Shown here in pieces: positions 35,746 to 55,945 of a stretch of 64,000 nucleotides of DNA. The stretch lies in NCBI GenBank assembly GCA_047973305.1, contig JBKEBT010000150.1, positions 1,548 through 65,547 on the forward strand. The letters run 5' to 3'. The stretch comes from Pyrinomonadaceae bacterium. Lineage in GTDB: Bacteria > Acidobacteriota > Blastocatellia > Pyrinomonadales > Pyrinomonadaceae. Numbering within the stretch: position 1 is the stretch's first letter; every line of letters begins with the position of its first letter. The notes under the pieces are model-generated. The model had not been told where the DNA came from and made no database searches. It was given only the letters and a program-made list of their open reading frames with translations. Made by a program: the position numbers and the translations under genes.

Positions 35746-36510
35746 CTATTTGGATAGATCTTTTGAGATTTTGTCAGCAGTTTTCACAACTAGATCAGTC
35801 ATTTCAGAAAACGTTTCTTTGGTAATTTGTTTTTTGTATCCAGCAACACTGATCGCGGCTACAACTCTGCCGGTTTGATCTGTTATTGGCGCACCAATAC
35901 AACGCGAGCCAATTGTTTCTTCTTCGTCGTCGAGCGCATAACCTTGAGTGCGCACAAGACGCAATTCGTCTTTTAGCTTTTTAGCTGAAACTATTGTGTT
36001 TTCATTATAGCGGGGAAGTCCGTATGTTAATATTCTATCAACAACTTCTTCTTCCCAATCACTCATAACCGCTTTGCCCACTGCAGTGCAGTGAATTCCC
36101 ATACGCATTCCAACCCAAGTTTTAACTTTTGGTGTGTATGGCGATTCAAGTTTTTCGATTATCACAACTTCGTTGCGTTCTTGCATCGCTAAATGAACGG
36201 TTAGATTGCACATTCGCAACAGAACCTTTAGGTGGGGCGACGCTATTTTGCGGATATTTAATCCACTCATTGCGCGATTTGCAAGCGTAAATATTTTCAT
36301 CCCGAACATATATCGTCCGGTTGCTTCGTTTCTATGCAAATAGCCAAGCCGTTCAAGGGTTAACAGTAATCCGAATGTTGAACTTTTTGGAAGCGAAAGG
36401 TTTCGGGTTAATTCTGAAAGGCTCAATCCGCTTTGCGATTTTGCAAGCTCTTCCATAATCAACATCGCTTTTTCGATTGCGGGAACCGATTTGGTTTTTG
36501 AATCTGACAT
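35746..36510 (-). CDS. IclR-family transcriptional regulator
   Basis: N-terminal winged HTH (AIEKAMLIMEELAKSQSGLSLSELTRNLSLPKSSTFGLLLTLERLGYL) and a C-terminal IclR effector domain. It is divergent from the rfaH-like gene. I chose the ATG at 36510; the track starts at a TTG at 36525. Confidence 0.85.
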   Translation of the reverse strand: MSDSKTKSVPAIEKAMLIMEELAKSQSGLSLSELTRNLSLPKSSTFGLLLTLERLGYLHRNEATGRYMFGMKIFTLANRAMSGLNIRKIASPHLKVLLRMCNLTVHLAMQERNEVVIIEKLESPYTPKVKTWVGMRMGIHCTAVGKAVMSDWEEEVVDRILTYGLPRYNENTIVSAKKLKDELRLVRTQGYALDDEEETIGSRCIGAPITDQTGRVVAAISVAGYKKQITKETFSEMTDLVVKTADKISKDLSK

Positions 36511-36618
36511 AATTAATCTAAACAACAGATTATTCTTGCTTTTGTTTAACAGTTTAAACTATTACCTGTCAATAGTCGCCAAAAATCTACCTAAGTACAA
36601 GACTAAACCAAATACGCA

Positions 36619-36724: not shown

Positions 36725-37234
36725 ATGGAAATTAATGCGGACTTGAATTGGTATGCTATTCGAACCAAATCGAATCAAGAACGAATAGCTGAGCTAAATT
36801 TGAATCGGATGGGCTTGGAAGTTTTTAACCCAGAGCTTAAATCAGAAAAAGAAGTTTTCGGCGTTACAAAAACCGTATTGAGTCCCTTATTCCCAAACTA
36901 CTTATTTGCAAAGTTCAACCCTTCAAAGTATCTACACTTAATTCAATATGCACGCGGAGTTCGGCAGGTATTGCGAACAGGAATAGCATTGTTGCCGGTT
37001 GAAGAACAGATTATAAAGGAAATTAGGCGTCGGCTTGTTTCCGGCGAATATGTTCAAGCTGAAAAACTATCAAGTGGCAGCTCTGTCGCAATAAAACAGG
37101 GCGCATTTAACGGGTTAAACGCAATCTTTGATCGCGAAACTAGCGATCGCAAACGGGTTGTGCTGCTGTTGGATATCATGGGTGTAAATGCAGAAGTAAT
37201 TCTGGATAAACGCGCGGTAAAAACCGCGGTCTAA
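36725..37234 (+). CDS. rfaH: RfaH-type specialised NusG paralog (NGN plus KOW)
   Basis: The 169-aa protein aligns by eye along its full length with E. coli RfaH as I recall it. Matching segments are NWYAIRTKSNQERIAELNLNR, SPLFPNYLFAKFNP (the RfaH signature, where NusG has FFPGYVLV), ARGVRQVLRTG, and the KOW segment VAIKQGAFNGLNAIFDRETSDRKRVVLLLDIMG. Confidence 0.75.
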   Translation: MEINADLNWYAIRTKSNQERIAELNLNRMGLEVFNPELKSEKEVFGVTKTVLSPLFPNYLFAKFNPSKYLHLIQYARGVRQVLRTGIALLPVEEQIIKEIRRRLVSGEYVQAEKLSSGSSVAIKQGAFNGLNAIFDRETSDRKRVVLLLDIMGVNAEVILDKRAVKTAV

Positions 37235-37268: not shown

Positions 37269-37313
37269 GGAAAAGTTCGCCGAAATGGCGGTAGTCTGTC
37301 ATTCAATCGAATC
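37269..37313 (+). promoter_or_regulatory. ops-like element (GGCGGTAGTCTG, 37287..37298) inside a 45-nt conserved leader block, copy A
   Basis: The + strand reads GGAAAA-N6-CGAAATGGCGGTAGtctGTcATTcaatCGAATC. The core matches the ops consensus GGCGGTAGnnTG. The same block, with identical spacing, is at 43397..43441. Confidence 0.65.
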
Positions 37314-37413: not shown

Positions 37414-38178
37414 ATGAAATTAAAAGATAAAGTTGCCATTGTTACCGGCGGCGGAACCGGAATCGGAAAAGGAATAAGCCGATGTTTGGCAAGTGCCGGC
37501 GCGAAAATTGTAATTGCACAGCCAACGCTCGAAAAAGCAAACGCAGCTGCCGAAGAATTTCGTAAAGAAGGGTTTGAAGTTTTGCCGATGAGCGTAGATA
37601 TAAGTTCGCGAAAAACGGTAAAAGCAATGGTTGCGGAAACGCTGGACAAATTCGGAAGAATCGACATTTTGGTAAACAACGGCGCCCTGACCGGATCAAA
37701 AGCAACCGCACCTTTTCTTGAAATTACTGACGAACTTTTGGATAGAACGGTTGATGTGAATCTCAAGGGAACGGTGATTGTTTCGCAAGAAGTAGCCCGC
37801 AACATGATTGAACACGGTGGTTCTATTATCAATATTTCATCAGTCGGCGCTTTCGCTGCTCAAGAAGGAGCATCAATTTACTGCGCAACAAAATCGGCAC
37901 TCTTGGGTTTAACGAAAACTATGGCATTGGAACTTGCACCGCAAAATATACGTGTAAATGCAATTGCGCCGGGAGACATATTAACTGAAACCAGCGAACG
38001 CATTGTTGAAGAGAAAATGGAAGATGGATATTCAAATAAGTATCTGCGCAAGATTCCGCTAGACCGACGCGGCAAACCTTCCGAAATCGGTAAAACCGCC
38101 GTGTTTTTAGCGTCTGACGATGCCTCTTACATCACGGGTGAAACAATTGTGGTTGATGGCGGTTTCTTGATTTATTGA
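37414..38178 (+). CDS. Short-chain dehydrogenase/reductase (SDR)
   Basis: Motifs TGGGTGIGKG, NNGA and the catalytic YCATKSA (YxxxK). Confidence 0.9.
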   Translation: MKLKDKVAIVTGGGTGIGKGISRCLASAGAKIVIAQPTLEKANAAAEEFRKEGFEVLPMSVDISSRKTVKAMVAETLDKFGRIDILVNNGALTGSKATAPFLEITDELLDRTVDVNLKGTVIVSQEVARNMIEHGGSIINISSVGAFAAQEGASIYCATKSALLGLTKTMALELAPQNIRVNAIAPGDILTETSERIVEEKMEDGYSNKYLRKIPLDRRGKPSEIGKTAVFLASDDASYITGETIVVDGGFLIY

Positions 38179-38400
38179 TTTTGAGCTGGGCGATGTTTTT
38201 CGCAACGCAAATGATTTCAACCATTAGTATTGAAACCGTGGATTAAAGATTTGAATGGGTTGGAAGACAATTGAGAGCCAAGCCGAACGATTAGTAACGA
38301 GAAACGCACGACGATATTTTCCCGAGGCGTTTTGAAAGTTTTGAACCAAATCATAAAAGTGGATGGAGGATAAACTGCAATAAAAGCAGCCTACAAAGTT

Positions 38401-39309
38401 ATGAAGTTGAAAGGAATGGTTCCGCCAATCGGAACACCGATAAATGAAGACGAAACTGTTGATGAAAATGGCTTACGCAAGCTTGTAAACTACTTAATAG
38501 ACGGCGGCGTCGATGGAGTTTTTGTCAATGGTTCAATGGGTTGTTCCGCGCTTTTGACTGATGCAGAACAGTTTCGCGCCATTGAAATTGTTGCGGATGA
38601 AGTAAACGGACGTGTTCCAGTAGTGGCAGGAATTTCAGATAGCAGCACGAAAAGGGTAATCGAAAAAACCAAAATTGTGGAACGCTTCAGGGTTGATTTC
38701 TTAACCGCGGTTGTGCCGTACTTTTTCAAATTAACACAACAGCAAGGAAAGCGATTTTTTCAGGAAGTTGCAGCCGCTGCGCAAAAGCCTGTCTTGATCT
38801 ACAACAACCCGTATTTAACTCCAATGGATTTTGAAGTTTCCACGTTACTAGAACTTTCTGAAGAACCTAATATAGTGGGCGTTAAAGATTCAAATCAAGA
38901 TTTCAACCGCTTAACAGGGTTGCTGGAAGCATTTCGTGGCAAAGATGAATTTACAATTATGCTCGGAACTGAACTCTTGATTCCGCAGGGCTTGATGATG
39001 GGTGCTGATGGTGCAATAGGCGGTGCGCACAACATTGCGCCGGCATTCGCTGCCGAGCTTTATAAGGCACATCTGGCTGGCGATTACGAAACGGCGTATG
39101 CGCGCAGCAACGACCTAGCGCAAATTTGCAAAATATTTCAGTATGGTTCAATTTGGGGAGGGTTTGAAGCGGCTTTGCAATTGCTGGGAATTTGCGAAAA
39201 GGTGGTTTTTGAGCCATACGCTTCTGCAAATGCCGACGAAAAACTGAAGGTTGAAGAGATTTTAAACGGTTGCGGTTTGCTGCAACAGCCTGTAGGTTCG
39301 CCAATTTAG
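38401..39309 (+). CDS. DapA/NanA-family class I aldolase (dihydrodipicolinate synthase family)
   Basis: Has the family pattern: GVFVNGSMGCSALL where GxxGE is expected, YNNP for the Tyr motif, and VGVKDS for the Schiff-base Lys. Confidence 0.8.
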   Translation: MKLKGMVPPIGTPINEDETVDENGLRKLVNYLIDGGVDGVFVNGSMGCSALLTDAEQFRAIEIVADEVNGRVPVVAGISDSSTKRVIEKTKIVERFRVDFLTAVVPYFFKLTQQQGKRFFQEVAAAAQKPVLIYNNPYLTPMDFEVSTLLELSEEPNIVGVKDSNQDFNRLTGLLEAFRGKDEFTIMLGTELLIPQGLMMGADGAIGGAHNIAPAFAAELYKAHLAGDYETAYARSNDLAQICKIFQYGSIWGGFEAALQLLGICEKVVFEPYASANADEKLKVEEILNGCGLLQQPVGSPI

Positions 39310-39313
39310 CTAA

Positions 39314-40066
39314 ATGAAAATCACTGATGAAATTTATTTGGTTGGAAGTTTGCAGCTTGGAATTTCGGGGCAATGGGATAGCCATGTTTACTTGATAAAG
39401 GGAACTGAGGGCTTGATATTGATTGATTCGGGCGGCGGAACTGATTGCGAAATGATATTCGATAATATTCGGCGTGAAGGGTTTGATCCGAATGAGATAA
39501 AATCAATTTTATTGACCCATTTCCATTTTGATCATTCATGTGGAGCCGCTGAAATCAGGGATAAAACCGGATGCGAAGTTTATATTTCTACCAAGTCAAG
39601 AGATTTGCTTGAAACCGGAACGGCAAAAGAAGCGGGACTTGAGCAGGCGATTGAACAAGGGGTTTACCCGGAGGGGTTTAAGTTTCGGAATTGCGTTGTA
39701 GATAAAGCATTGAATGACGGTGATGTGTTTGAAACAGCCGGGTTGAAATTTGAAACAATCGGCGTTGAAGGACATAGCGCGGATTCGATTTGTTATTTGG
39801 TTGAGCTAAATGGCAAGAAAAATTTATTTTCAGGCGACGTTCTTTTTTACGGCGGAATAATCGGCTTAATAAATGCACCGGGTTCCACTATGGATGGCTA
39901 TAGAAGGGATCTTAAAAAGCTTGCCAATTTGCATATTGAGGGACTTTTTCCGGGACATTTTTTGTTTACGATAAATGGCGGGCAGAAACATATAGATGCC
40001 GCGATTGAAATGTGTGAAAAAGGAGTGATTCCGCAAACCGTTGGGCAATACGGTGTAGTGTTTTAG
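39314..40066 (+). CDS. MBL-fold metallo-hydrolase
   Basis: HFHFDH metal-binding motif, followed downstream by GHSADS and a further His. Confidence 0.8.
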   Translation: MKITDEIYLVGSLQLGISGQWDSHVYLIKGTEGLILIDSGGGTDCEMIFDNIRREGFDPNEIKSILLTHFHFDHSCGAAEIRDKTGCEVYISTKSRDLLETGTAKEAGLEQAIEQGVYPEGFKFRNCVVDKALNDGDVFETAGLKFETIGVEGHSADSICYLVELNGKKNLFSGDVLFYGGIIGLINAPGSTMDGYRRDLKKLANLHIEGLFPGHFLFTINGGQKHIDAAIEMCEKGVIPQTVGQYGVVF

Positions 40067-40068
40067 AA

Positions 40069-41064
40069 ATGACTGTTTCAATTAAGGTTGACGAGTTCAG
40101 TTTTGAGCGAGTATCGGAAATCGGCAAACACCGATTGTTCTTGGAAATTGCTTCTGCCGGCGTTGGTGAACAAATCGGACTTCCCTTGTTGATTGCAAAT
40201 GGTGCTAGAACCGGTAAAACTCTCGTAGTTTTTGCGGGGGTTCACGGCGATGAACTGGAAGGCATTCAAGCGGTTCATGAGGTTTTTAATAGCCTTGACC
40301 CTGAAAGTTTGTGCGGAAGATTTATCGCCGTTCCGACCGCGAATCTTCCTGCAGTTCGGGCGATGCAGCGAAACAGTCCCATAGATTTATTGAATTTGGC
40401 GCGCGTATTTCCGGGCAACAAACACGGCAGTGTAACCGAGCGCATTGCCTTTTATCTTTCCACAATAATACTTCCGCAAGCCGATTTTTTTATCGATCTG
40501 CATAGTTCAGGGATAACTTCGTTGATGCCCCTAATGGTGGGTTACGATGCCGGTGAAACAATTGCGGGAACCGAATCAAAATCTGCGGCTTTGAAATTTG
40601 GAACGCCTGTAATGTGGGGACACGCTGAAATCGGACAAGGACGTTCGATAACTTCAGCCGGCGAACAGGGAATTCCGTGGCTTTATGTTGAATCACCAAG
40701 CGGGGGAAAAGTTTCTTCTGATTATTTGCCGTTTTACAGCAATGGTTTGTTCAACTTGCTAAAGCATCTGCATATTATTTCGGGTGAAATAGCCGAAAGC
40801 ACGCCTAAATACAGCCTGCTTGGCTCAGGTGATACGGATAGTGCACAAGTTGTAAACACTTACGGATTTTTTGTGTCGAAAGTAAAATTGCTTGATTTTG
40901 TTAAACGCGGAACGCTTATAGCTGAGGTTCGAAACGTTTACGGCGAAACGATTGAACAAGTTGTTGCCAAGAATGCGGGTTGCGTTTCAATGTTGCGAGC
41001 TGCGACGGTTGTTGAACCGGGCACGTTGGTCTGTTTGGTAGTTGAAGCAGAATTTGTAAATTAA
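40069..41064 (+). CDS. Succinylglutamate desuccinylase/aspartoacylase (AstE/AspA, M14-like) family deacylase
   Basis: GVHGDELEG zinc-binding motif, then DLHS later in the sequence. The 331-aa length is typical. Confidence 0.75.
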   Translation: MTVSIKVDEFSFERVSEIGKHRLFLEIASAGVGEQIGLPLLIANGARTGKTLVVFAGVHGDELEGIQAVHEVFNSLDPESLCGRFIAVPTANLPAVRAMQRNSPIDLLNLARVFPGNKHGSVTERIAFYLSTIILPQADFFIDLHSSGITSLMPLMVGYDAGETIAGTESKSAALKFGTPVMWGHAEIGQGRSITSAGEQGIPWLYVESPSGGKVSSDYLPFYSNGLFNLLKHLHIISGEIAESTPKYSLLGSGDTDSAQVVNTYGFFVSKVKLLDFVKRGTLIAEVRNVYGETIEQVVAKNAGCVSMLRAATVVEPGTLVCLVVEAEFVN

Positions 41065-41124
41065 CAAAGTTCATTCCAAATAAATCAAATAAAATTTAAG
41101 GTATTTAGTCTACCGGAGTAAAAA

Positions 41125-42594
41125 ATGGGTTTTTCAACTTTTGATTGGGTAGTAGTAGGAATCTATCTGTTGGCAAGCGTTTTGATTGGCGCATCATTTT
41201 TTAAGAAGCACGAAAACGCAAAAGATTATTTGCTGGCAGGTCGAAACATGCATTGGTTTCCGATAGCAATTTCGATTATTGCCACGGATTTAAGTGCGCT
41301 TTCTTATATCGGCGTTCCGGCATTGGTTTATAAAACCGACCTAAAATATATGATCACTGCAATCATGATGCCGTTGCAAATGCTTTTGGTTGTGGTTGTA
41401 TTTGTTCCACTTCTTTATCGGCTGAATATTTACACGGTTTATGGATATTTGGAACGCAGATTTAATAAGACTACAAGATTATATGCAGCTTTGTTGTTTA
41501 TGGGGGGGCGCGGCGCATGGCTTGCAACCATGATTTTTGCAACATCGGTTGTATTAACCGAAATTACGGGAATCGATACAGTTACAGCCATTATTATCTG
41601 CGGCTTGGCAACAACTGCCTACACATTCTTAGGAGGAATGGAAGCGGTTGTTTGGACTGATTTTATGCAGTTCTTTGTGTTGGTTGGCGGTGCAATAGCC
41701 ATATTGCTTTTTATACTTTACGGGTTTGGATGGGATTTTGGTCAAATTTGGACAATTGCATCGAACACCGGTCACACAAAATTTGTTGATTTTTCGTTTG
41801 ATTTTACCAAGGCGTTCACGTTTTGGGGGTTATTGTTTGGCTCTTTGATTTATCAGATTTCGACTTATGGAACCGATCAGCTCAATGTTCAGCGATATTT
41901 CGCGACCAAAGATTTGAAAAGCACTATCTGGGCAACGCTGGGTTCGGCAGTAATCTTGTTTCCGATTTTGATTTTGCTTTATGTTATCGGTCTTGGTTTG
42001 GTGGCATATTATCATTCGCATCCGGAGTTGCAAGCTACTTTGGGAAATCCGGACAGGGTAATGCCGCATTTTACATCCAATGTACTTCCAATGGGGCTTC
42101 GCGGTTTGGTTATTGCCGGAATCTTTGCGGCAACCATGTCCAGCATGTCTGCGGGAATAAACTCGTTGTCTACAAGCACAATGAAAGATTTGCTTGAACA
42201 AATCAGTCCAAAATTGATTAAGAACGAGTTGTTTTGGGCGCGCTCGTTGTGTTTGGGATGGGGAGTGCTTGTAACAATTATTGCGCTTGTGATGATCAGC
42301 GGACAACTTACGATTATTGAAAGATTTAATTCAATATACCAGCTTTTTGCGGGACCATTGGCGGGCATCTTCCTGTTGGGAATTCTTTCAAAAAGAACTT
42401 CGGCAGTTCCGGTGTTGCTCGGCTCGGTTGTTGGATTTGCAACGGCGATATATGTTCAGCAAACAACAAACATCCATTGGCTTTGGTTTGCTCCAATCGG
42501 TTTTGCGGTAACATATTTTATTGGGTACGTTGGAAGTTTCATAATTTCGAGTTCAAACTCTGCAGAACCTGAAGCCACTCAAAACGCTAGTTAG
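41125..42594 (+). CDS. Sodium:solute symporter (SSS) family transporter
   Basis: 489-aa protein with about 13 TM helices. The segments YLLAGRNMHWFPIAISIIATDLSALSYIG and GGMEAVVWTDFMQ are typical of SSS transporters. Confidence 0.85.
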   Translation: MGFSTFDWVVVGIYLLASVLIGASFFKKHENAKDYLLAGRNMHWFPIAISIIATDLSALSYIGVPALVYKTDLKYMITAIMMPLQMLLVVVVFVPLLYRLNIYTVYGYLERRFNKTTRLYAALLFMGGRGAWLATMIFATSVVLTEITGIDTVTAIIICGLATTAYTFLGGMEAVVWTDFMQFFVLVGGAIAILLFILYGFGWDFGQIWTIASNTGHTKFVDFSFDFTKAFTFWGLLFGSLIYQISTYGTDQLNVQRYFATKDLKSTIWATLGSAVILFPILILLYVIGLGLVAYYHSHPELQATLGNPDRVMPHFTSNVLPMGLRGLVIAGIFAATMSSMSAGINSLSTSTMKDLLEQISPKLIKNELFWARSLCLGWGVLVTIIALVMISGQLTIIERFNSIYQLFAGPLAGIFLLGILSKRTSAVPVLLGSVVGFATAIYVQQTTNIHWLWFAPIGFAVTYFIGYVGSFIISSSNSAEPEATQNAS

Positions 42595-42738
42595 GTAGGT
42601 GTTTTGCGGTTTTTTGTTCGAACAACAGCAAGAAGAGTGTTTTATTTGGTGGTAGTTGGATTTGTAAGTAAAAAACAGAACAGACAATTCCTTGGGCAAA
42701 AATACCGAATAGATTTCGGATTCTATTATTTGATTAAT

Positions 42739-43110
42739 ATGATTGAACATACAGTAGTTGGTGAACTGAAGCTTCCTTTTTCGCATGCGGTTCGCGTTGA
42801 TAATTTTGTATTCATTTCCGGACAGGCTTCGGTTGATTTATCAAGCGGTGAAATTATTTCAGGCACACTTGCTGAAGAAGTTGGGCAATCCATGCAAAAC
42901 TTACGAACGATTCTTGAGAACGCCGGTGCGCAGTGGGAAGATATTGTTAAAGTTGGATGTTTCGTACGCCGAAATGAAGATTTGGCTGAATTCAATGTGC
43001 TTTACCGTCAGTATTTCTGCGAGCCATTTCCGGCGCGTACAACCGTTACCAATTGTTTGCCACCCAGCTTGCTTTTTGAAATCGATTGCGTTGCGGTAAT
43101 TAAGAAATAA
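42739..43110 (+). CDS. RidA/YjgF/Endoribonuclease L-PSP family protein
   Basis: Motifs FVFISGQ, NLRTILENAGAQWEDIVKV and ARTTV..LP....EIDCVA. I placed the start at the ATG at 42739; the upstream part of ORF 42604 looks non-coding. Confidence 0.85.
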   Translation: MIEHTVVGELKLPFSHAVRVDNFVFISGQASVDLSSGEIISGTLAEEVGQSMQNLRTILENAGAQWEDIVKVGCFVRRNEDLAEFNVLYRQYFCEPFPARTTVTNCLPPSLLFEIDCVAVIKK

Positions 43111-43412: not shown

Positions 43413-43441
43413 ATGGCGGTAGCCCGTAATTATTCCGAATC
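43397..43441 (+). promoter_or_regulatory. ops-like element (GGCGGTAGCCCG, 43415..43426) inside the 45-nt conserved leader block, copy B
   Basis: GGAAAA-N6-CGAAATGGCGGTAGcccGTaATTattcCGAATC. It is identical to copy A at 32 of 45 positions, including a 14-nt perfect run. The ops core ends 112 nt before the receptor ATG; in copy A the distance is 116 nt. Confidence 0.6.
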
Positions 43442-43537: not shown

Positions 43538-46500
43538 ATGAAAAATGTATTTAGGCTGATCTTTTTTTCACTTTGTCTTATTGGCGTGCATACAGCATTT
43601 GGGCAAACTACCAATCAAGGAACGATTGTTGGAACAGTTAAAGACCAAATGGGCGATGCAATCCCTGCAGTGGTTGTATCAATCACAAACAATGAAACCG
43701 GTGCAGGCAGAACTGCCACAACAGATGAGCACGGAAACTATCGGGTTGATTTTTTGACACCCGGGGTATATCGAATATTGGCGGAGCTTTCAGGATTTAA
43801 GAAAGCCGAATTATCACAGATAACTGTGAATGTAAGCGATATTACCAGAGCCGATATTAAAATGGAGATTGGGCAAATTTCCGAACAAGTAACGGTTGAT
43901 AACGATACTGCGGGAATGGTAAATACAGAAAACGCCACATTTGGTGAAGTAATAAACGAGAACATCATTCAAAATATGCCGTTAAATGGAAGGGAATTTG
44001 TTGAGCTTTCAGGATTGGTTCCCGGGGTTTCCGATGGAAGCGGTAAAACGGGTTCAATTTCCAGCAAAGGCGTAGCGACCGCGGTAGGCGGTTCCCGTTC
44101 ATCATACAACTCATTTTATGTTGATGGGGCAGATTCAACCGATAACTATTTCGGGCAGTTGGTTTCATCACCGGCATTGGATGCAGTTAAGGAATTTCGC
44201 GTTGAAACTAGTTTGTATTCCGCACGCTTCGGACGCGCCGGCGGTGGCGTAATAAATGTAGTCACAAAGTCCGGCACAAATGATTTTCATGGTTCACTCT
44301 ACGAATTTCATCGAAGCGAAGATTTTGATGCAATGCCGTATTTCTATACCGGTCCAAAAGAAGATAGACCCACGTACCTGCAAAATCAATATGGCGGCAC
44401 TATAGGCGGTCCGGTTTACCTTCCAACTTTGGGTTTTGGCGGAAAGAAATATTACAGTGGCAAAAACAGAACATTTTTCTTTTTTAGCACGGAGTTTTAT
44501 CGTCAAAAGAAGCCCGGACAGTTCATTGAAGGTATTGCGCCTACGGCGTTGGAACGCGTAGGAAATTTCACGGAAACTATCAATCCGTACACGAATGCGC
44601 CCGTTACACTCGTTTATCCAAATGTTTACAAAGTTACATCAACGTGTCCCGATCCAACGCAACCACCGGTAACTTCGGGCACTCCTTCAGCCGGACAGCA
44701 CTGTCAGCAGATGCCGATTACCAACAAAATTTTACCGGCAAACTTAATCAATCCTTTGGGTCAGAAGTTGATGGATTTAATTCCGGAACCGAATTATGAT
44801 GATCCGATATTCAACCTACGAGTCTTTAAGAGCGGCAGACATACAGCTGACAAATATCTCATAAAACTCGACCACAATTTCAAAGACGGCAGCAATCTAA
44901 ACGGAAGCTACAATTACGGAATTTACGACAATACGAACCCGGGGATAACTGATTTTGCCGCAACCAATTCATACGATTACGGAAAAACTTTGGCAATTGG
45001 CTTTACCAAGCCGATAAATCGAAATTTGGTTTCGGACACAAAGTTTAATTATACGTGGAGCGACAGCGGACTAAGACAATTGGCTTCGGACAAAAACTAC
45101 GCTGAAGAATATGGTTTTTGGGTTGGAGGACAAAAGCCCGATATAAACGGATTTCCAAGAGTACAACTCTACACCGTTGGAAACAGGTATATGACATTGG
45201 GCTCATCAGGTCCTAACATGCGAAGCAACAAAACAATGTATGTACGCGAAGACCTGATCTATATCAAAGGCAACCACACAATTTCATTGGGTGCCGATTT
45301 TAAGGCGCAGGATTATGGCTGGATTTACGATGTTGCAATGTTTGGCGCGTATTACATTGGAATTCTTGAAAATGGAGTTACATCCGGAAACCTTTACTAC
45401 AGAGTTACGGGGCATACATTTGGAAACTTGCTAACAGGAATTTCTTCTTATTCATCTTATAGTTACGGCGATTCCAGATATGCTAGATCGCAGCGCAACA
45501 GCATTGGTACATACTTGCAGGATGATTGGAAAGTTTCAGACCGTTTAACGATGAACTTGGGGCTCAGATACGATTTTGAACCGCCTTTCAGTAGCAAAGA
45601 TGGCAAGTTTATGACGCTTAATTGGGAAAATGGCATGCCGCTTTATTCCAAACAAACCAATTCTTCATTGCTGCAAGATTTAAAATTTAATTATCAAACG
45701 GGTGGTCCAAAAACTCCGTTTGATGCAAACAAACTAAATTTTGCTCCACGAGTTGGCTTCGCACTCAACATTTTTAATGACAATTCAACTGTGCTTCGCG
45801 GCGGATTCGGGCTGGTTTACAATAGCGAAAGCTTTTACACCACGGGTTACGGATCGTTCGTTGCGCCGTTCGGCGGTACTTTTATTTGGAGAACGCGTGC
45901 AGCGTTGCAGCCCGATTTGGTAAATCACTTGATTCCGATGGATCAAGAACCGTATCAGCTGCCGCTTACTGAGCCAACTTCTCCGGGCAGCACTTGGGTA
46001 AACCCCAGATACTATCCGACAGGATATGTTCAGAATTGGAATCTCGGCATATCGCGAGAAATAGGCTGGGGAGTTGTTGCTGAAACATCTTATGTTGGTT
46101 CGAAGGGAACCAACCTAAACGGACTTGGTTCATTGAGAAGTTACGATCCTGCACTATTGGCAAAAGCCAAAGAAAATAACCCCGAATGGGTTACAACCGG
46201 CGGAAGTAACGTAGTAAGCCTTAGATTAAAGGGTTTTAATTCTAGTTATCATTCTTTACAGGCAAAGCTCAGGAAACGGTTCCGAAATGGAATAAGCTTT
46301 TTAGGTGCGTATACATGGTCACATACAATGGCTGAAGCATCTAACGATCTTGTAGATGAAAATCTTGATTCGTTGGATACAGAAACGCAAACCTATGTGT
46401 ATAAACGAATAGATACAAATGCCGATTTCGATATCCGCCACCGCTTTACCTTTTCCGGCACATACGATTTACCGTTTGGTAAGGGGCAGCATTTTGGATC

Positions 46501-46957
46501 TGATTGGAATTCATTTGTAAATACATTGTTTGGAAACTGGCGTCTAAATATGATTACCAAAATGCAATCGGGTCAGCCGTTCAGCGTTCGTGGTACAAAT
46601 GGTCGCCCGCCGAACAGACTCTGTGACGGAAACCTTCCGGCAAGCGAAAGAACCGTTGAAAGATGGTTTGATACAAGTTGTTTTGTTGATTCGGCTTCAA
46701 GCACCATAAACGGTAATGCATCGCCAAACATCATTTGGGGACCAAATTTGATTGCATTCGATTTTGGTCTTCATAAAGAACTAAAGTTTGGTGATAATGT
46801 TAAATTGCAGCTTCGCGGTGAAGCCTTTAACGCTTTTAACAGAGTTAACCTAATAGGACCAAGTCTTAATTACTTTGTTAATGCGGATTCAGGCGCAACG
46901 CTTACTCGGCAGCGTGACAACAGAAGTCTTCAATTTGGTTTAAGACTTATTTTTTAA
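43538..46957 (+). CDS. TonB-dependent receptor with N-terminal carboxypeptidase-regulatory-like domain
   Basis: Signal peptide, then GTIVGTVKDQMGDAIPAVVVSITNNETG (CarboxypepD_reg-like), a plug region, a 1139-aa beta-barrel and a C-terminal aromatic residue (LRLIF). An AGGAG Shine-Dalgarno lies 8 nt upstream. Confidence 0.88.
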   Translation: MKNVFRLIFFSLCLIGVHTAFGQTTNQGTIVGTVKDQMGDAIPAVVVSITNNETGAGRTATTDEHGNYRVDFLTPGVYRILAELSGFKKAELSQITVNVSDITRADIKMEIGQISEQVTVDNDTAGMVNTENATFGEVINENIIQNMPLNGREFVELSGLVPGVSDGSGKTGSISSKGVATAVGGSRSSYNSFYVDGADSTDNYFGQLVSSPALDAVKEFRVETSLYSARFGRAGGGVINVVTKSGTNDFHGSLYEFHRSEDFDAMPYFYTGPKEDRPTYLQNQYGGTIGGPVYLPTLGFGGKKYYSGKNRTFFFFSTEFYRQKKPGQFIEGIAPTALERVGNFTETINPYTNAPVTLVYPNVYKVTSTCPDPTQPPVTSGTPSAGQHCQQMPITNKILPANLINPLGQKLMDLIPEPNYDDPIFNLRVFKSGRHTADKYLIKLDHNFKDGSNLNGSYNYGIYDNTNPGITDFAATNSYDYGKTLAIGFTKPINRNLVSDTKFNYTWSDSGLRQLASDKNYAEEYGFWVGGQKPDINGFPRVQLYTVGNRYMTLGSSGPNMRSNKTMYVREDLIYIKGNHTISLGADFKAQDYGWIYDVAMFGAYYIGILENGVTSGNLYYRVTGHTFGNLLTGISSYSSYSYGDSRYARSQRNSIGTYLQDDWKVSDRLTMNLGLRYDFEPPFSSKDGKFMTLNWENGMPLYSKQTNSSLLQDLKFNYQTGGPKTPFDANKLNFAPRVGFALNIFNDNSTVLRGGFGLVYNSESFYTTGYGSFVAPFGGTFIWRTRAALQPDLVNHLIPMDQEPYQLPLTEPTSPGSTWVNPRYYPTGYVQNWNLGISREIGWGVVAETSYVGSKGTNLNGLGSLRSYDPALLAKAKENNPEWVTTGGSNVVSLRLKGFNSSYHSLQAKLRKRFRNGISFLGAYTWSHTMAEASNDLVDENLDSLDTETQTYVYKRIDTNADFDIRHRFTFSGTYDLPFGKGQHFGSDWNSFVNTLFGNWRLNMITKMQSGQPFSVRGTNGRPPNRLCDGNLPASERTVERWFDTSCFVDSASSTINGNASPNIIWGPNLIAFDFGLHKELKFGDNVKLQLRGEAFNAFNRVNLIGPSLNYFVNADSGATLTRQRDNRSLQFGLRLIF

Positions 46958-47129: not shown

Positions 47130-48665
47130 ATGAAAAAATTCATCGCCGGACTTTTCTTTTTCATCTGCTTTGTTCTTCCAAGTTTTGGACAGTCTGCTGT
47201 CAAAATCGGTTCCGAACTTCAGTTATTTACAGACAAGTACTTAATAGAAGATATGAGTGGCGAAATTGATTTGCGTCTGCATCATCCAACCCCACGGGAA
47301 GTAGTGTTGGTTCATGATGCGCCTTGGGAAGGCAACGGTTCTGGCTATCACAGCATTTTTAAGGATGGAGATAAATACAAGCTTTACTATAAAGCATGGC
47401 GAGTTTCTCAACCAAAAGGCGCAAAGAAGGAGAATACTTCATATTTAGCTTATGCCGAAAGCAAGGACGGCATCAATTGGATTAAGCCAAATCTAGGAAT
47501 TTACGAAATTAACGGCACAAGAAACAACAACGTTGTGTTGATTAGTGAAAAAGTAGGCAATTTTAATGTAACCGCCGGTTTGCCCGGTGTTTTTAAAGAT
47601 GAAAACCCGAACGCGCCCGCTGATGAACGCTACAAAGCGCTAATTGTTTCTTCTGCGCATGGAACGGATTATCACGGTTTGTTGGCATATAAATCCGCAG
47701 ACGGCATACATTGGGAAATGATGTCGAACAAACTCATTATTACGGATGATGCATTTGATAATCAAAACGTAGCCTTTTGGGATCCCCGCACAAAACAGTA
47801 TCGCGCATATTGGCGTTCTTGGTCAGAAAGTGACAAAAAATCACTTTACAAGGGAATTCGCGGCATTAAAACAGCTACAAGCAAAGATTTTATTACTTGG
47901 GAAAACAAACAATTACTTAGCTACGAAAATTCGCCCGAAGAACATCTTTATACAAATCCGATTGAACCTTATTATCGCGCGCCACAGCTATATATTGGCT
48001 TTCCTGCAAGATATATCGAACGTGCGTGGGGAACTTCTTTGCGGGCATTGCCGGAAGGTGATGAGCGCAAGGCGCGTTCTGAGCGTGTGATGCGGTATGG
48101 AACCGCAATTACTGATTCGCTCTTTATGACAAGTAGGGATGGAGTCAGGTTTTATCGTTGGAATGAAGCTTTTCTTACCCCCGGAATTGAACGCGACGGA
48201 AGTTGGACGTACGGTGACAATTATCTGGCTTGGGGTATGGTTGAAACAAAATCGGAATATGCGGGCGCACCCAATGAACTGTCGCTTTACGCAACCGAAG
48301 GTTATTGGAAGAACAATGGAAGCAAACTTCGTAGGTTCACTATAAGAATCGATGGATTTGTTTCGGTAAAGGGATCGGCAAACGGCGGCGAACTGTTGAT
48401 AAAAAATTTAGTCTTTAGCGGCAATTCATTGAACTTGAACTTTTCATCATCTGCGGCTGGCGAATTGCGGGTTGAAATACTTGATTCTGATGGCAAAACA
48501 ATTCCAAACTTTTCGCTCGATGACTGTGATGTTATTTTTGGTGATTCTTTAAACCGAAAAGTTAGTTGGAACGGAAATTCTGATGTGTCGTCATTGGAAG
48601 GCAAAACCATTAAACTGAGATTTAAGTTAAAGGATGCCGATTTGTATTCATTTCAGTTCCGTTGA
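47130..48665 (+). CDS. Secreted beta-propeller protein with Asp-box-like repeats (glycoside-hydrolase-like)
   Basis: Signal peptide MKKFIAGLFFFICFVLPSFGQ. Repeats ESKDGINW, KSADGIHW, TSKDFITW and TSRDGVRFYRW. The C-terminal beta-sandwich looks like a carbohydrate-binding module. Confidence 0.5.
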   Translation: MKKFIAGLFFFICFVLPSFGQSAVKIGSELQLFTDKYLIEDMSGEIDLRLHHPTPREVVLVHDAPWEGNGSGYHSIFKDGDKYKLYYKAWRVSQPKGAKKENTSYLAYAESKDGINWIKPNLGIYEINGTRNNNVVLISEKVGNFNVTAGLPGVFKDENPNAPADERYKALIVSSAHGTDYHGLLAYKSADGIHWEMMSNKLIITDDAFDNQNVAFWDPRTKQYRAYWRSWSESDKKSLYKGIRGIKTATSKDFITWENKQLLSYENSPEEHLYTNPIEPYYRAPQLYIGFPARYIERAWGTSLRALPEGDERKARSERVMRYGTAITDSLFMTSRDGVRFYRWNEAFLTPGIERDGSWTYGDNYLAWGMVETKSEYAGAPNELSLYATEGYWKNNGSKLRRFTIRIDGFVSVKGSANGGELLIKNLVFSGNSLNLNFSSSAAGELRVEILDSDGKTIPNFSLDDCDVIFGDSLNRKVSWNGNSDVSSLEGKTIKLRFKLKDADLYSFQFR

Positions 48666-48740: not shown

Positions 48741-50615
48741 GTGCATTTTTTCGTTCGTTGGTTCAAAACACATTCCTTTAAATCGTTACCCTTCTTTGTT
48801 TTATTCATTTCGTTTACAGTCAGCGCTTCGGCACAAAATTATCTGTATGAATCAGACAGATGGGAAAAATCCGGCGAAGCAATAATAATTTCCGATATGT
48901 CGCAGGTTGAACCAAGAAATGCTCTAACGTTTGATCTTAGGCGAAAAAGACATTGGAAGGTTTTGGATTATGAAACCAAAGACGGTTTAAAAGGCAACAG
49001 CATTGCGAGCTTGCCGGATACGGGCGCGCCGGCGGTTACGCTCAAACTGAACAAAACCGGTTGGTTTGCGGTTTATGTAGGTCTTGGCGGCGCCGGCAGA
49101 TTTGGATACGGACAAACCAGCGAAGCGCGCAAAAAATTGACAAACGATGTTGCATATCAACATCGCAGATACAGCGGCGCAAGCGATGATATTGATGAGG
49201 TTTTCTTTAAAAATGCCGATCTAACAGGACAAGATTTGGAGTTTGCACAGATGAGAATGAAGGCGAGAATGAACGTCGATATTCCCGCCGTAAACCCGCG
49301 TCATACCGTAATAATGTACGTTAAACTTGTTCCTTTAACTCCAAAAGAAGTTGCATTCATAAAAACCGAAAGCGAACGTACAGATACAAAAAATTTGATT
49401 GGTACAATGGATGGGTTTAGTTGGCTTAATAAAAACTATCCAACCACCAAAGAAGAGTTTTTAGAAAATTTTGAGCATTTTAGGGATTCAGATTTCGGAA
49501 CTCTTTCGTGGCAGATTATTGGCGGCGATTTGGTCAATTACGATTCTAAATTGGGAACAATAATTGGCGATTTATCAGATGATCCACCGCGTTCCGGAGA
49601 TATTGACGTTACAAGGGCGGTTAAGAAGTTTATAGAAGATGGAGCAGATGAAACAAAGCTGGCAGTTGAAGCGGCTCATTCAATGAACAAGAAAATCAGC
49701 ATTGGCTTTAGAACTCAAGCGTGGCAGGCACCGCCGGCTTTTGAAGATTATTTCAGCTCCAGATTTTATCGCGAAAATCCGCAATTTAGAACCTATGACC
49801 GCGATGGAACGCCTGTTATGAGAATGAGCTATGCGGTTCCGGAAGTTAGAGAGCATATTTACGGAATCTTTAAGGAAATTCTGAATTACCAGCCCGATGG
49901 ACTTGAAATAATATATTTTCGGGGTTTGCCATTAATGCTTTGGGAAGATGCCTTTAGCAACCGATTCAAAGAGAAATACGGAGCCGATGCAAAACAAATT
50001 CCCGAAGACGACCCGCGACTTTCTGAACTCCGCTGCGAAATCATGACCGATTTTATGCGTAAAACACGCAAATTGCTCGATGATGTGCAAAAGGCACAAG
50101 GAAGAGAAAAGCGTTACGAGCTTTCCGTTTCCGTTGTACACACCGAAGAAGACAATAAGAAATATGGGTTGGATGTTGAGCAATGGGTGAAAGAAGGCTT
50201 AATCGATAAAATCTCAATTTTTCCGGCGGCTTTTCATACCAACACCAGAAAACCCGTGGATTTCAAGTGGTTTGCGAAAATAACAAAGGGAACAAAAATC
50301 GGGTTTTACCCTATAATGATTGGTGCGGGCATGGCTAGTTATGAAGACCTGATTAAGAATGCGCAAAAGAATTACGCTGCGGGTGCGGCAGGAATGATGT
50401 TTTGGGATCCGGACCCGATAAATCAATATAAAAAGCCCGATTCGCACTATTTTAATCGTCCCGTAAATACTTATTGGTCATTGGTTTCGCGAATCGGGCA
50501 CAAAGACGATTTGAGTATTTTTGAAGCAGAAAACAGACCCAGTGCGAAATATATTCCGTTAAAGAAATGGGGAAATCATTATTTTGGGCGTTGGATTCCG
50601 GATGTTGGATTTTAG
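48741..50615 (+). CDS. Secreted hypothetical protein (possible TIM-barrel glycosidase-like)
   Basis: GTG start with an AGGAG 9 nt upstream, and a signal peptide ending SASAQ. The protein is 624 aa and I did not firmly recognise a family. Confidence 0.45.
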   Translation: MHFFVRWFKTHSFKSLPFFVLFISFTVSASAQNYLYESDRWEKSGEAIIISDMSQVEPRNALTFDLRRKRHWKVLDYETKDGLKGNSIASLPDTGAPAVTLKLNKTGWFAVYVGLGGAGRFGYGQTSEARKKLTNDVAYQHRRYSGASDDIDEVFFKNADLTGQDLEFAQMRMKARMNVDIPAVNPRHTVIMYVKLVPLTPKEVAFIKTESERTDTKNLIGTMDGFSWLNKNYPTTKEEFLENFEHFRDSDFGTLSWQIIGGDLVNYDSKLGTIIGDLSDDPPRSGDIDVTRAVKKFIEDGADETKLAVEAAHSMNKKISIGFRTQAWQAPPAFEDYFSSRFYRENPQFRTYDRDGTPVMRMSYAVPEVREHIYGIFKEILNYQPDGLEIIYFRGLPLMLWEDAFSNRFKEKYGADAKQIPEDDPRLSELRCEIMTDFMRKTRKLLDDVQKAQGREKRYELSVSVVHTEEDNKKYGLDVEQWVKEGLIDKISIFPAAFHTNTRKPVDFKWFAKITKGTKIGFYPIMIGAGMASYEDLIKNAQKNYAAGAAGMMFWDPDPINQYKKPDSHYFNRPVNTYWSLVSRIGHKDDLSIFEAENRPSAKYIPLKKWGNHYFGRWIPDVGF

Positions 50616-53455: not shown

Positions 53456-53513
53456 TGTTATAAGCGTCGTTTTGGCGATAGGTTTGATGCAGAAGCGAAA
53501 ATCGAATTTTATT

Positions 53514-54617
53514 ATGAAAAAGTTAGTGTTTATCGCATTTATTTTGTTTGGTTCGTATGTATGTTTAGCCCAAGAAAAGGTTGAGCTAACTTGGTACAAC
53601 GCCGTGGATTTGGGAATTGACGGTCGCGGTTGGGAAGACCCAAAGGCGCCGTTTGATAGGTTGCCGGATAAGGCAAAGGGAAAAGTTTCCAAGGATGTTT
53701 GGTCAAGAGCCCTAAATTCTGCGGGGCTCAATGTTTCGTTCGCAACCGATTCAGAAATGATTGTTGTACGTTGGAAGCTTCGTCACCCCAGTATTTATGG
53801 CGCAACTCTCTCTCCACTAAGCGTTGGCGGTCTAGATCTTTACCTTCGTGAAAACAATAAATGGTATTGGGCGGCTGCAAAATCACCGAAGCCGCCAAGT
53901 GTTCAACCTGAATCGATTGAAACATTCTTGCGCGGACTTCCAAAAGAACTTCTCGAATTTCGAATGTATCTTCCAAGTTATAACGGACTCGAAAAGCTTG
54001 AAATCGGCGTAATTAAGGATTCTAAGTTCGGAAAGGCTGTTGAAAACACCACGGAGAAACCGTTAGTTTTCTATGGCGGATCTTTAATTCAAGGCAGTGC
54101 CTCGTCAAGACCGGGGATGACCTTGGTCTCCCAATTAAACCGCCGTTTGAATCGTGAAACTATCAACTTGGGATTTTCCGGAACGTGCAAAATGGAATCT
54201 GAATTCGGAGATTTATTGGCTGAACTTGATCCGGCAATGTATGTAATTGATTGCCTCCCAAGCATGACCGCGGCGGAAATCAAGGAAAGAACCGAGAAGT
54301 TTGTAAAGAAAATTCGTAAGGCAAACCCTGAAACGCCAATAGTTTTTCTTGGAACGCCAAATTATTCGCAATCGCTTTGGAACCCTTCCGTTCAGAAATC
54401 AATTGCTTCAAAAAATCGAATTATTGCAGCGCAGTTTGCCCAGCTTCAAAAAGATGGATATAAGCGCATCTATTACCTCAAAGGAGAAAATCTGTTTCCG
54501 AGCGATGGCGAATCGACCGTTGATGGTGTGCTGCCAACGGATTACGGCTTCAAGGTATTCGCGGATGCGTTAGAACCGCTTTTGCGACGCATTTTGCAAG
54601 AATCTGAGAATAAGTAA
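53514..54617 (+). CDS. SGNH/GDSL-fold esterase-like protein (sialate O-acetylesterase-like architecture)
   Basis: Signal peptide MKKLVFIAFILFGSYVCLAQ, an N-terminal beta-sandwich, block I VFYGGSLIQGSAS, then INLGFSG. Block V reads DGVLPTDYG, with Leu where the catalytic His is expected. Confidence 0.65.
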   Translation: MKKLVFIAFILFGSYVCLAQEKVELTWYNAVDLGIDGRGWEDPKAPFDRLPDKAKGKVSKDVWSRALNSAGLNVSFATDSEMIVVRWKLRHPSIYGATLSPLSVGGLDLYLRENNKWYWAAAKSPKPPSVQPESIETFLRGLPKELLEFRMYLPSYNGLEKLEIGVIKDSKFGKAVENTTEKPLVFYGGSLIQGSASSRPGMTLVSQLNRRLNRETINLGFSGTCKMESEFGDLLAELDPAMYVIDCLPSMTAAEIKERTEKFVKKIRKANPETPIVFLGTPNYSQSLWNPSVQKSIASKNRIIAAQFAQLQKDGYKRIYYLKGENLFPSDGESTVDGVLPTDYGFKVFADALEPLLRRILQESENK

Positions 54618-54806
54618 TGTGAATTTTTATCCTGTGATTTTGTTGTTAAGGCTTCCTGTAATACGTTAAGAAATTATACGTGCAGCCTAAGATTTTGCAT
54701 GAAACCCGTTGTGTTTCTTAATTTACTTTAAGCCGCTTGATGAGCCTTAAGTATTCACAAATAGAGATTCTATTTTCAGAAAGCGAATTAAAGAAGAAGT
54801 ATATTG

Positions 54807-55940: not shown

Positions 55941-55945
55941 AAAAA

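Follow-up and report, generated by a model that had tools for sequence, protein, structure and literature searches.

A predicted sialic-acid-type utilisation locus with an atypical clade of aldolase in a Pyrinomonadaceae bacterium

A 64 kb stretch of contig JBKEBT010000150.1 from a Pyrinomonadaceae bacterium of the phylum Acidobacteriota, referred to here as the window, carries a two-operon unit spanning 37.4-60.9 kb (Table 1) which, judged by its gene families, is predicted to serve the utilisation of sialic-acid-type sugars by way of a new downstream route and an aldolase of a new clade. Operon 1 consists of six open reading frames (ORFs) on the + strand. An earlier note, made from the sequence alone, had described six co-directional genes following an ops core, and the ORF map of the 64 kb window, the Pfam assignments (each operon-1 protein well above its gathering score) and an ops core at 37287 bear this out. 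The same note took the six genes to be the import and cleavage system. The operon is real, but it makes up only half of that system, the pyridoxal phosphate (PLP) enzyme, a second amidase, an aminotransferase and an FAH-family hydrolase residing in the next operon. Within operon 1 the genes are 2-60 nt apart, save for 222 nt between the SDR and aldolase genes and 145 nt before the RidA gene, and none of the intergenic gaps contains a terminator-like site; we infer that the genes are co-transcribed. All five operon-1 enzymes, the MBL-fold hydrolase included, are devoid of signal peptides, whilst the first five operon-2 proteins after the receptor possess them.

Table 1. Features of the two-operon unit and its regulatory genes (positions in the window).
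Feature	Position	Strand	Match or remark	Proposed role
IclR-family regulator	35746..36525	-	Pfam HTH_IclR + IclR_C; divergent from the locus	
RfaH-like NusG paralogue	36725..37234	+	Pfam NusG; NCBIfam RfaH TIGR01955 115 bits versus cut-off 144.5	
ops core A, exact GGCGGTAG	37287..37294	+	operon-1 leader, between the RfaH-like and SDR genes	
SDR	37414..38178	+	adh_short_C2, E 7e-66	sugar 1-dehydrogenase on N-acyl-aminosugar (proposed)
DHDPS/NAL-family class I aldolase, Glu-less clade	38401..39309	+	PF00701, 197 bits	nonulosonate lyase (proposed)
MBL-fold hydrolase	39314..40066	+	Lactamase_B, E 3.7e-27; cytoplasmic; HFHFDH at 69-74 intact	
AstE/AspA-family zinc deacylase, DoeB-like	40069..41064	+	PF24827, 95.6 bits versus 25	
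SSS (SLC5) symporter, SMVT/SMCT/SiaT group	41125..42594	+	PF00474	
RidA-type imine/enamine deaminase	42739..43110	+	Ribonuc_L-PSP; ORF opens at 42604	
ops core B, exact core	43415..43422	+	operon-2 leader, 5' of the TonB receptor gene	
TonB-dependent receptor (TBDR)	43538..46957	+	CarboxypepD_reg + OMP_b-brl_4	
Secreted 511-aa protein (unk511), glycosidase-like family	47130..48665	+	no Pfam family	
Secreted GHL10-like protein	48741..50615	+	weak PF02638 match, E 6e-6	
Secreted FG-GAP repeat protein	50651..53455	+	homologues in L006, L012, L087 and G001	
Secreted SGNH esterase	53445..54617	+	GxDLY + Lipase_GDSL_3	O-deacylase (possible)
Secreted GH33-like BNR propeller (BNR)	54804..55940	+	BNR_2, E 6.6e-37; signal peptide	exo-nonulosonidase (proposed)
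ThrC-like fold-type II PLP enzyme (PALP)	55922..57019	+	PALP, E 2.3e-74	beta-eliminating ammonia-lyase (proposed)
M81/MlrC-type metallo-amidase (M81)	57021..58478	+	DUF1485 + MlrC_C	second N-deacylase (proposed)
HemL/GSAM-like class III aminotransferase (AT3)	58592..59938	+	386.6-386.7 bits versus HemL cut-off 527.3	
FAH-family hydrolase	59974..60876	+	nearest to 2,4-didehydro-3-deoxy-L-rhamnonate hydrolase	

The two operons share their leader architecture. The exact ops core occurs only twice in the window, both times on the + strand and in a leader. In the closest relative (G001, aldolase 74% identical), where the whole two-part gene order is syntenic including the run BNR-PALP-M81-AT3-FAH, an exact ops core lies ~170 nt upstream of the TonB receptor gene. 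The top NCBIfam matches of the IclR regulator are BhcR and KdgR, both below cut-off. A homologue with 54-69% identity flanks the related loci L001, L002, L005, L007, L008 and L009 and was also called in L081, and the RfaH-like gene adjoins it in L001-L003, L005 and L007. As part of the best explanation, it is proposed that the two operons form one regulon under RfaH/ops and IclR control.

The aldolase is the most distinctive component of the locus. It retains the hallmarks of its superfamily: the translation contains IYNNP (Tyr134) and VGVKDS (Lys162), and alignment to E. coli K-12 NanA equates these residues with NanA Tyr137 and Lys165, in agreement with the Tyr and Schiff-base Lys motifs picked out previously. 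The GXXGE motif, which binds carboxylate and is highly conserved in N-acetylneuraminate lyases (NALs) and DHDPSs (PMC5380162), is however broken. The aldolase reads G44-S-M-G-C48 within NGSMGCSALL, with Cys48 at the family Glu position, and in passing from NanA to the aldolase Ser47 becomes Ser45, Thr48 becomes Met46, Glu50 becomes Cys48 and Thr167 becomes Ser164. The earlier note had read this loop correctly as having Cys in place of Glu, but the Cys is not a conserved replacement. A database search returned a homologue series graded to ~44% identity, followed by a drop, and all members of the series read G-[ST]-M-G-x, where x is C, G, A, I or S and the equivalent of Thr48 is always Met; remoter homologues read GTTGE, GSMGE and the like. 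A function for Cys48 as a stand-in for Glu was rejected because the position varies within the clade. At the level of sequence, the hallmark of the clade is the loss of Glu together with the fixed Met, and not the Cys. Such a clade-wide loss is unusual, given the high conservation of GXXGE in NALs and DHDPSs. In a maximum-likelihood tree the Glu-less clade, almost all of whose members come from Acidobacteriota, has 99/96 support and stands apart from E. coli NanA, DapA and YagE, from the DapA and the LhpC-like paralogue of the host, and from a Bacteroidota NanA/aldolase-SSS clade.

Classification by profile hidden Markov models placed the proteins of operon 1 above the Pfam cut-offs of their families; across the locus, most equivalog cut-offs were not reached. 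The aldolase scores below both NanA models (TIGR00683/NF003164; 128.8 versus 382 and 157.4 versus 281), below the DapA model TIGR00674 (171.6 versus 206.15) and below the cut-offs of the HpaI-like and KDG (2-keto-3-deoxygluconate) aldolase models of NCBIfam. It thus does not fall squarely inside any of these characterised subfamilies, consistent with its separate position in the tree. An identity as DapA proper was rejected on this score and because the host has its own DapA on contig C140, a gene which scores 284.6 bits to PF00701 and groups with E. coli DapA. An AlphaFold2 model of the aldolase (pLDDT 93.5), which has the (beta/alpha)8 fold of the superfamily, gives as its top fold match in the PDB the NAL of Corynebacterium glutamicum, CgNal (5c54; TM 0.92-0.93, ~31% identity), which is also its top sequence match (E 1e-39). 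YagE, DapA and NanA follow close behind, and fold alone does not decide function, since the TM values to NAL, DHDPS and KDG-aldolase/YagE structures all lie between 0.87 and 0.93. The residues by which E. coli NanA recognises N-acetylneuraminic acid (Neu5Ac) are unmatched, Asp191 being replaced by Glu191, Glu192 by Leu192 and Ser208 by Gly. This mismatch is not decisive, as the active CgNal also lacks the Asp191/Glu192/Ser208 set (PMC5380162). CgNal differs from the aldolase, beyond the low identity, in keeping GSSGE where the clade has G[ST]MG[C/G/A/I/S].

The distribution of the clade ties it to the rest of the gene set. The window proteins were used to scan 80 loci encoding relatives of the aldolase, with flanks of 10 kb. 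Where the aldolase is Glu-less, 14 of 21 loci carry at least one of MBL, AstE, PALP, M81 and AT3, and 9 of 21 carry BNR; several of the remaining Glu-less loci are short contigs. Not one of the 59 loci with a Glu-bearing aldolase has MBL, AstE, PALP, M81, AT3, RidA or BNR within these flanks. The association of the Glu-less aldolase with the gene set is strong, although it is not treated as a statistic because the genomes are interrelated and the flanks limited to 10 kb. A homologue of the SDR lies directly upstream of the aldolase in L006, L008, L011, L081 and L082, MBL and AstE are adjacent in L001-L008, L081 and L087, and M81 is found in L004, L007, L010, L012, L016, L017, the P0077 contig and G001. 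AT3 occurs together with M81 in seven loci (L004, L007, L010, L012, the P0077 contig, L095 and G001); in L081 the place of M81 is taken by a pair of Amidohydro_2 genes. In Pfam-annotated contigs of the protein collection the gene set recurs, now accompanied by NanM-like mutarotases, up to three BNR_2 genes, TBDRs and pyruvate phosphate dikinase. NanM-like mutarotases are present in four related loci. The genome containing L004 (G006) is flagged as unpublished and no conclusion rests on it. The clade is rare: it occurs in 11 of the 401 Acidobacteriota genomes that were sampled, and in none of 27 from the window's own family.

A remoter group of aldolases, at 33-34% identity, reads LGSMGC/S (L092/L093, G095:C1:1570000-1576000, and comparable complete genomes). 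In several acidobacterial genomes assembled as a single contig, a gene of this group lies next to one for an M81 amidase and to another DHDPS-family gene, which does bear the Glu; the group may represent a related but different system.

The other proteins of operon 1 could be assigned to families and, in part, to groups within them. The SDR passes the NCBIfam 'glucose 1-dehydrogenase' subfamily PRK07231 (257.7 bits versus a cut-off of 215), and its PDB search returned generic relatives with no close characterised structure; its substrate would be an N-acyl-aminosugar. The PDB relatives of the MBL-fold hydrolase are distant and of B3 type only (E 1e-15). The sole NCBIfam match of the deacylase is DoeB, at 131.2 bits versus a cut-off of 402.7, and its few PDB matches include DoeB itself (6twl/6twm, E 2e-29); HGDELEG and DLHS segments can be seen in its sequence. 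The symporter is equally near to SMVT (1.8e-61) and to SiaT (5nv9, 6.4e-60) in the PDB. Neu5Ac is bound in SiaT by Ser60, Thr63, Gln82 and Arg135 (PMC5931594), and the carboxylate-binding pair Ser60/Thr63 is kept in the symporter as Ser57/Ser60. RidA scores 93.5 against a cut-off of 106.25 for TIGR00004 and has a PARTTV segment with the Arg. Its ORF (42604-43110) encodes 168 aa, of which residues 58-166 form the Rid domain, so that translation probably starts at the ATG at 42739 and yields a protein of 123 aa.

Operon 2 begins with surface and secreted proteins. TBDRs are also found in L010, L017, L018, L022, L081 and L082. The atlas clusters of unk511 are unnamed or automatically named GH32-N-like, and one structural look-alike cluster, of ~857-aa proteins, carries BNR_2. 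Blocks of TBDR, unk511, aldolase and SSS occur in the Solibacteraceae loci L018 and L019, and in L022 from the Bryobacteraceae unk511 stands beside a TBDR and an SSS, near the aldolase; unk511 is a candidate new glycosidase for the same substrate. Homologues of the GHL10-like protein with 64-68% identity are found in L001-L005, and the SGNH esterase is present in two copies in G001. The PDB matches of the BNR protein are all sialidases or Asp-box/BNR-repeat proteins of that kind, the best having an E of 3e-9. Its clade conserves the Asp boxes, Glu228, Arg244, Arg300 and Tyr338 in the order expected of GH33. The parts that we take these residues to play, in the Arg triad and the Tyr/Glu nucleophile pair, follow sequence motifs known for GH33.

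The remaining products of operon 2 are enzymes. The top matches of PALP are ThrC models, below cut-off, and threonine synthases of the PDB (E 4e-51), with secondary NCBIfam matches that are EutB-like. A true ThrC is encoded elsewhere, on contig C9 (289.6 bits versus 156.9 for the PALP), which led to the rejection of a housekeeping ThrC function. AT3 is the best HemL match both in the host genome and in G001, and no other HemL is detectable in the 95.9%-complete host genome or in G001. Four other relatives carry a true HemL (594-640 bits) besides paralogues that score 370-405 bits, a range into which the locus AT3 falls, and it is on this account that AT3, like PALP, looks from its sequence like a dedicated paralogue. 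The missing HemL of the host and of G001 may mean that hemL is unassembled, that the lineage lacks the C5 route to haem, or that AT3 does double duty. AT3 and FAH are adjacent in G001 as in the window. The FAH-family hydrolase scores 246.5 bits against a cut-off of 500 for NF053535 and matches a solved L-2,4-diketo-3-deoxyrhamnonate hydrolase (8gsr, E 2e-61). Converging on the end of operon 2 is a PF00144 serine beta-lactamase-family gene (61013-62467, - strand). A homologue, 34-39% identical, lies inside the operon between the aldolase and MBL genes in L001-L005, and the protein may add another amidase or esterase activity to the pathway. Elsewhere in the window, 25633-29175 encodes an 1180-aa protein that has DUF6079 as its C-terminal region, matches AAA_16 weakly and is unrelated to the locus.

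The host genome (assembly of 3.55 Mb, 95.9% complete) provides the background against which the locus can be read. It has three DHDPS-family genes: DapA, a paralogue in a hydroxyproline cluster on contig C48, and the locus aldolase, which is the only one that is neither of the former. Neither NanE (PF04131) nor an AGE-type epimerase (PF07221) has a match in the 95.9%-complete genome, in which the controls were positive, and the suggestion of a non-classical route fits this result. The hydroxyproline cluster, which looks complete, lies at L086 (G000:C48:1375-7390) and comprises a proline-racemase-family epimerase, a DAO-type dehydrogenase, the DHDPS-family paralogue and an aldehyde dehydrogenase. 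With its own paralogue on C48 and none of its genes at the locus, the hydroxyproline pathway was rejected. Catabolism of KDG is likewise not supported, since the IclR regulator matches KdgR only below the cut-off and the locus showed neither a kinase nor Eda.

Taken together, these features suggest that the locus may serve in the scavenging and catabolism of an N-acylated nonulosonic (sialic-acid-family) sugar acid without NanK and NanE steps, with a substrate of the legionaminic/pseudaminic type tentatively favoured; we give this reading an even chance of being right. The markers of an ulosonic acid, namely the NAL-like aldolase, the GH33-like and NanM-like neighbours and the carboxylate symporter, all appear to point this way. 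A nonulosonic-acid-like substrate had been suggested before, and it fits: the nearest solved aldolase is a proven NAL, the symporter is as near to SiaT as to any other solved protein, a GH33-like BNR protein occurs in the regulon and in relatives, and four loci have a NanM-like protein.

The model is predicted from gene families and context, each substrate and each step being inferred in this way. The TonB receptor and the secreted trimming proteins would take up and trim a glycan, and the BNR protein would free the nonulosonate in the periplasm, from where the SSS symporter would import it. The Glu-less NAL-type aldolase would then cleave it to pyruvate and an N-acyl-aminosugar. C1 of this sugar would be oxidised by the SDR and the resulting lactone opened by the MBL-fold hydrolase, yielding an N-acyl-alpha-amino acid from which the DoeB-like AstE/AspA deacylase would remove the N2-acyl group. 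The earlier note had placed deacylation ahead of cleavage. The N-acyl groups on which AstE/AspA/DoeB-type enzymes act adjoin a carboxylate, and such a group arises only after oxidation of the aldehyde fragment; the order cleave, oxidise, deacylate is for this reason the likelier one, and the downstream enzymes would make chemical sense only once the aldolase had exposed the aldehyde. Fold-type II PLP enzymes can dehydrate and deaminate 2-amino-3-hydroxy acids. The ThrC-like enzyme would accordingly eliminate the 3-OH, and RidA would hydrolyse the enamine/imine to a 2-keto-3-deoxy acid and ammonia; the presence of RidA is justified by the PLP enzyme encoded in the adjoining operon 2. Removal of a second (4-N-acyl) amino group by the M81 amidase and the HemL-like aminotransferase would follow in this window, leaving a 2,4-diketo acid that FAH would cut to pyruvate and lactate.

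It is this last module which bears on the identity of the substrate. The extra amidase, the gamma-type aminotransferase and the diketo-acid hydrolase are the reason for fitting a second amino group at C4 and a 6-deoxy end. The hexose half of legionaminic/pseudaminic-type acids has an N-acylated C4 amino group and a 6-deoxy end, and the M81/AT3/FAH module would thus favour a 5,7-diacylamido-9-deoxy substrate of that type over Neu5Ac. DoeB is an N-alpha-acetyl-L-2,4-diaminobutyrate deacetylase, and the resemblance of the deacylase to it would match the predicted intermediate, a substituted N-alpha-acetyl-2,4-diamino acid.

A number of parallels can be drawn with known systems. With the canonical Nan system (NanA-NanK-NanE-NagA-NagB, sialidase, NanM and SiaT/NanT) the locus shares a secreted GH33-like enzyme, a SiaT-group SSS and a class I aldolase of the NAL superfamily, and the related loci share NanM-like mutarotases. 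It differs in that NanE/AGE was not found in the host genome, in that the aldolase, short of the NanA cut-offs by a wide margin, is without the Glu of GXXGE, and in that kinase and epimerase give way downstream to a dehydrogenase, a hydrolase, a deacylase and a PLP lyase. The ong pathway of Pseudoalteromonas deacetylates an N-acetyl-aminoaldonic acid, GlcNAc1A, and then deaminates it to a 2-keto-3-deoxy acid through D-amino-acid-like reactions of OngB, which has the D-aminoacylase fold, and OngC, a GlcN1A deaminase (PMC9537276, PMC12017989). In both cases an N-acetyl-aminoaldonic acid is handled as an N-acetyl amino acid, as predicted for the locus. However, the locus employs an AstE/AspA zinc deacylase and a ThrC-like fold-type II enzyme, of L-type rather than D-type stereochemistry, and whilst the ong acid is made extracellularly by a lytic polysaccharide monooxygenase, that of the locus would arise in the cytoplasm, with the SDR acting after the lyase. 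An ong cluster was rejected, there being no OngB-type amidohydrolase of the D-aminoacylase fold in the locus.

The LRA1-LRA6 pathways for L-rhamnose and L-fucose resemble the proposed route in their SDR sugar 1-dehydrogenase, lactonase, 2-keto-3-deoxy acid and FAH step to pyruvate and lactate, the locus FAH having the LRA6 type as its best family match. By contrast, the locus has no sugar-acid dehydratase, and the 2-keto group would be formed by deamination and the 4-keto group by transamination instead of by a 4-dehydrogenase. An SDR-FAH pair elsewhere in the host genome (G000:C18:53637-55104), whose FAH is 67% identical to that of the locus, resembles the LRA5/LRA6 pair of non-phosphorylative 6-deoxy-sugar pathways. 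Finally, the DoeB/DoeD system pairs an N-alpha-acetyl-2,4-diamino acid deacetylase with a class III gamma-amino aminotransferase, as the locus may do, although the deacylase reaches only 131 bits of the 402.7 of the DoeB model, the aminotransferase is HemL-like and not DoeD-like, and DoeA and DoeC are absent.

Several observations weigh against the nonulosonate model. The assignments are at family level, most scores lying below equivalog cut-offs; the carboxylate-binding GXXGE motif of the aldolase is broken; and the role of the MBL-fold hydrolase as a lactonase, or alternatively as a second amidase, is a guess. The symporter has Ala79 and Trp132 at the positions aligned with Gln82 and Arg135 of SiaT, with an Arg129 one helical turn before Trp132. 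In the BNR clade the triad is without its first Arg: at the RIP motif this residue is consistently replaced, so that [YI]P follows C, A or T; such a two-arginine 'sialidase' may point to an altered environment for the substrate carboxylate. FAH was encountered close to the locus only in the window and in G001. The closest relative encodes NanM-like, glycerate 2-kinase, HIBADH-like and hydroxypyruvate-isomerase-like proteins, and its glycerate kinase, HIBADH-like protein and NanM are a better fit to a 9-hydroxylated substrate. Extra DHDPS-family genes stand beside BNR/NanM in L082 and L088, and G094 has two Glu-less clade paralogues, at L094 and L095 on C6, ~28 kb apart. The first of these is accompanied by NanM, BNR, a GDSL esterase and an SDR, and the second by MBL, M81, SDR, PALP, AstE and AT3. 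This pair suggests two distinct aldolase steps, and together with the extra DHDPS genes it indicates that the aldolase may act later, or at two steps.

Some of these observations would be accounted for if the same route served an ordinary sialic acid, Neu5Ac or Neu5Gc, with M81, the aminotransferase and FAH as accessories or for other N-acyl variants. N-acetylmannosamine (ManNAc), released by the lyase, would then be oxidised to N-acetylmannosaminate, deacetylated and converted by the PLP enzyme and RidA to KDG. L087 has the core set and NanM without AT3 or M81, the NanM-like, glycerate 2-kinase, HIBADH-like and GDSL esterase proteins of the closest relative suit a substrate with a glycerol tail, and at C2 ManNAc is configured like an L-amino acid, as would be apt for a substrate of AstE/AspA-type and fold-type II PLP enzymes. 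Neu5Ac is moreover cleaved by CgNal, the closest aldolase to have been characterised (PMC5380162). Against this, the operon of the window does include M81, the HemL-like aminotransferase and FAH, and AT3 accompanies M81 in the seven loci listed above (the Amidohydro_2 pair replacing M81 in L081), whereas Neu5Ac carries only the one amino group. A tblastn search of the host genome with the NanM-like, glycerate-kinase, HIBADH-like and AP_endonuc_2 proteins of L001 returned no homologue, and the residues of E. coli NanA that contact the glycerol tail, Glu192 and Ser208, are Leu and Gly in the aldolase. A plain sialic acid is on this evidence an unlikely substrate for the locus of the window.

Also improbable is a pathway for some other N-acylated amino-sugar acid or a glycopeptide-like polymer with no nonulosonate involved, in which the BNR proteins would not be sialidases and the aldolase would cleave or dehydrate a six-carbon 2-keto-3-deoxy acid at a late stage, in the manner of KDG aldolase, KdgD or LhpC. 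The missing Arg of the BNR clade and the broken GXXGE would agree with this, as would the G094 clade paralogue found inside an AstE/PALP/AT3/M81 block away from BNR/NanM. The DHDPS family is established to include dehydratases and deaminases, one of them in the hydroxyproline cluster of the host, and the unk511, GHL10 and FG-GAP proteins leave room for another specificity. Such a pathway leaves aside, however, three independent ulosonic markers, these being an NAL as the nearest aldolase, matches of BNR to sialidases and Asp-box proteins only, and NanM-like proteins in four loci. The genome has no other candidate lyase, and the minimal TBDR-unk511-aldolase-SSS blocks look like uptake followed by a first cleavage. 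That operon 1 is an amino-acid-derivative pathway (ectoine/hydroxyectoine-like, for N-acetyl-diamino acids or for hydroxyproline) merely lying beside a glycan locus is very improbable despite the DoeB-like deacylase, the EutB-like secondary matches of PALP, the class III aminotransferase as in DoeD and RidA, since DoeA, DoeC, EutA and EutC are missing, hydroxyproline has its cluster on C48, the amino-acid-type genes are interleaved with BNR, TBDR and NanM across several acidobacterial lineages, and the ops cores are common to both operons.

Within the favoured nonulosonate model, a narrower claim may be ventured, tentatively and as one that is somewhat unlikely to hold: that the locus encodes a catabolic pathway, the first of its kind, for the 5,7-diamino-9-deoxy nonulosonic acids (legionaminic/pseudaminic type) of bacteria. 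It would combine a GH33-like 'legionaminidase' without the first triad Arg, a new NAL clade without the GXXGE Glu and an oxidative, amino-acid-like module made up of the SDR, MBL, DoeB-like deacylase, ThrC-like lyase/RidA, M81, HemL-like aminotransferase and FAH. One molecule would be broken down to pyruvate (three-carbon units), lactate, acyl groups and ammonia, and soil Acidobacteria would in this way feed on the surface glycans of other bacteria.

To our knowledge, sialic acid catabolism has been described almost exclusively as the NanA-NanK-NanE route of host-associated bacteria. In the full-text literature, the coverage of which is incomplete, no description was found of legionaminic or pseudaminic acid catabolism, of a confirmed pseudaminidase or of an oxidative ManNAc/N-acetylmannosaminate route, nor was any paper found on a dedicated glycosidase for legionaminic/pseudaminic acids; according to a 2026 paper, pseudaminidase(-like) activity is still to be confirmed (PMC13317340). 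If the prediction is true, a conserved locus in free-living Acidobacteriota swaps kinase and epimerase for a module which oxidises, deacylates and deaminates, and would constitute a new branch of amino-sugar metabolism. The 'highly conserved' GXXGE motif of NALs and DHDPSs would be dispensable in a whole clade, and glycobiology and biocatalysis would gain candidate lyases, glycosidases and deacylases. The recycling of nonulosonate-bearing envelopes and extracellular polymers by soil bacteria would also be accounted for.

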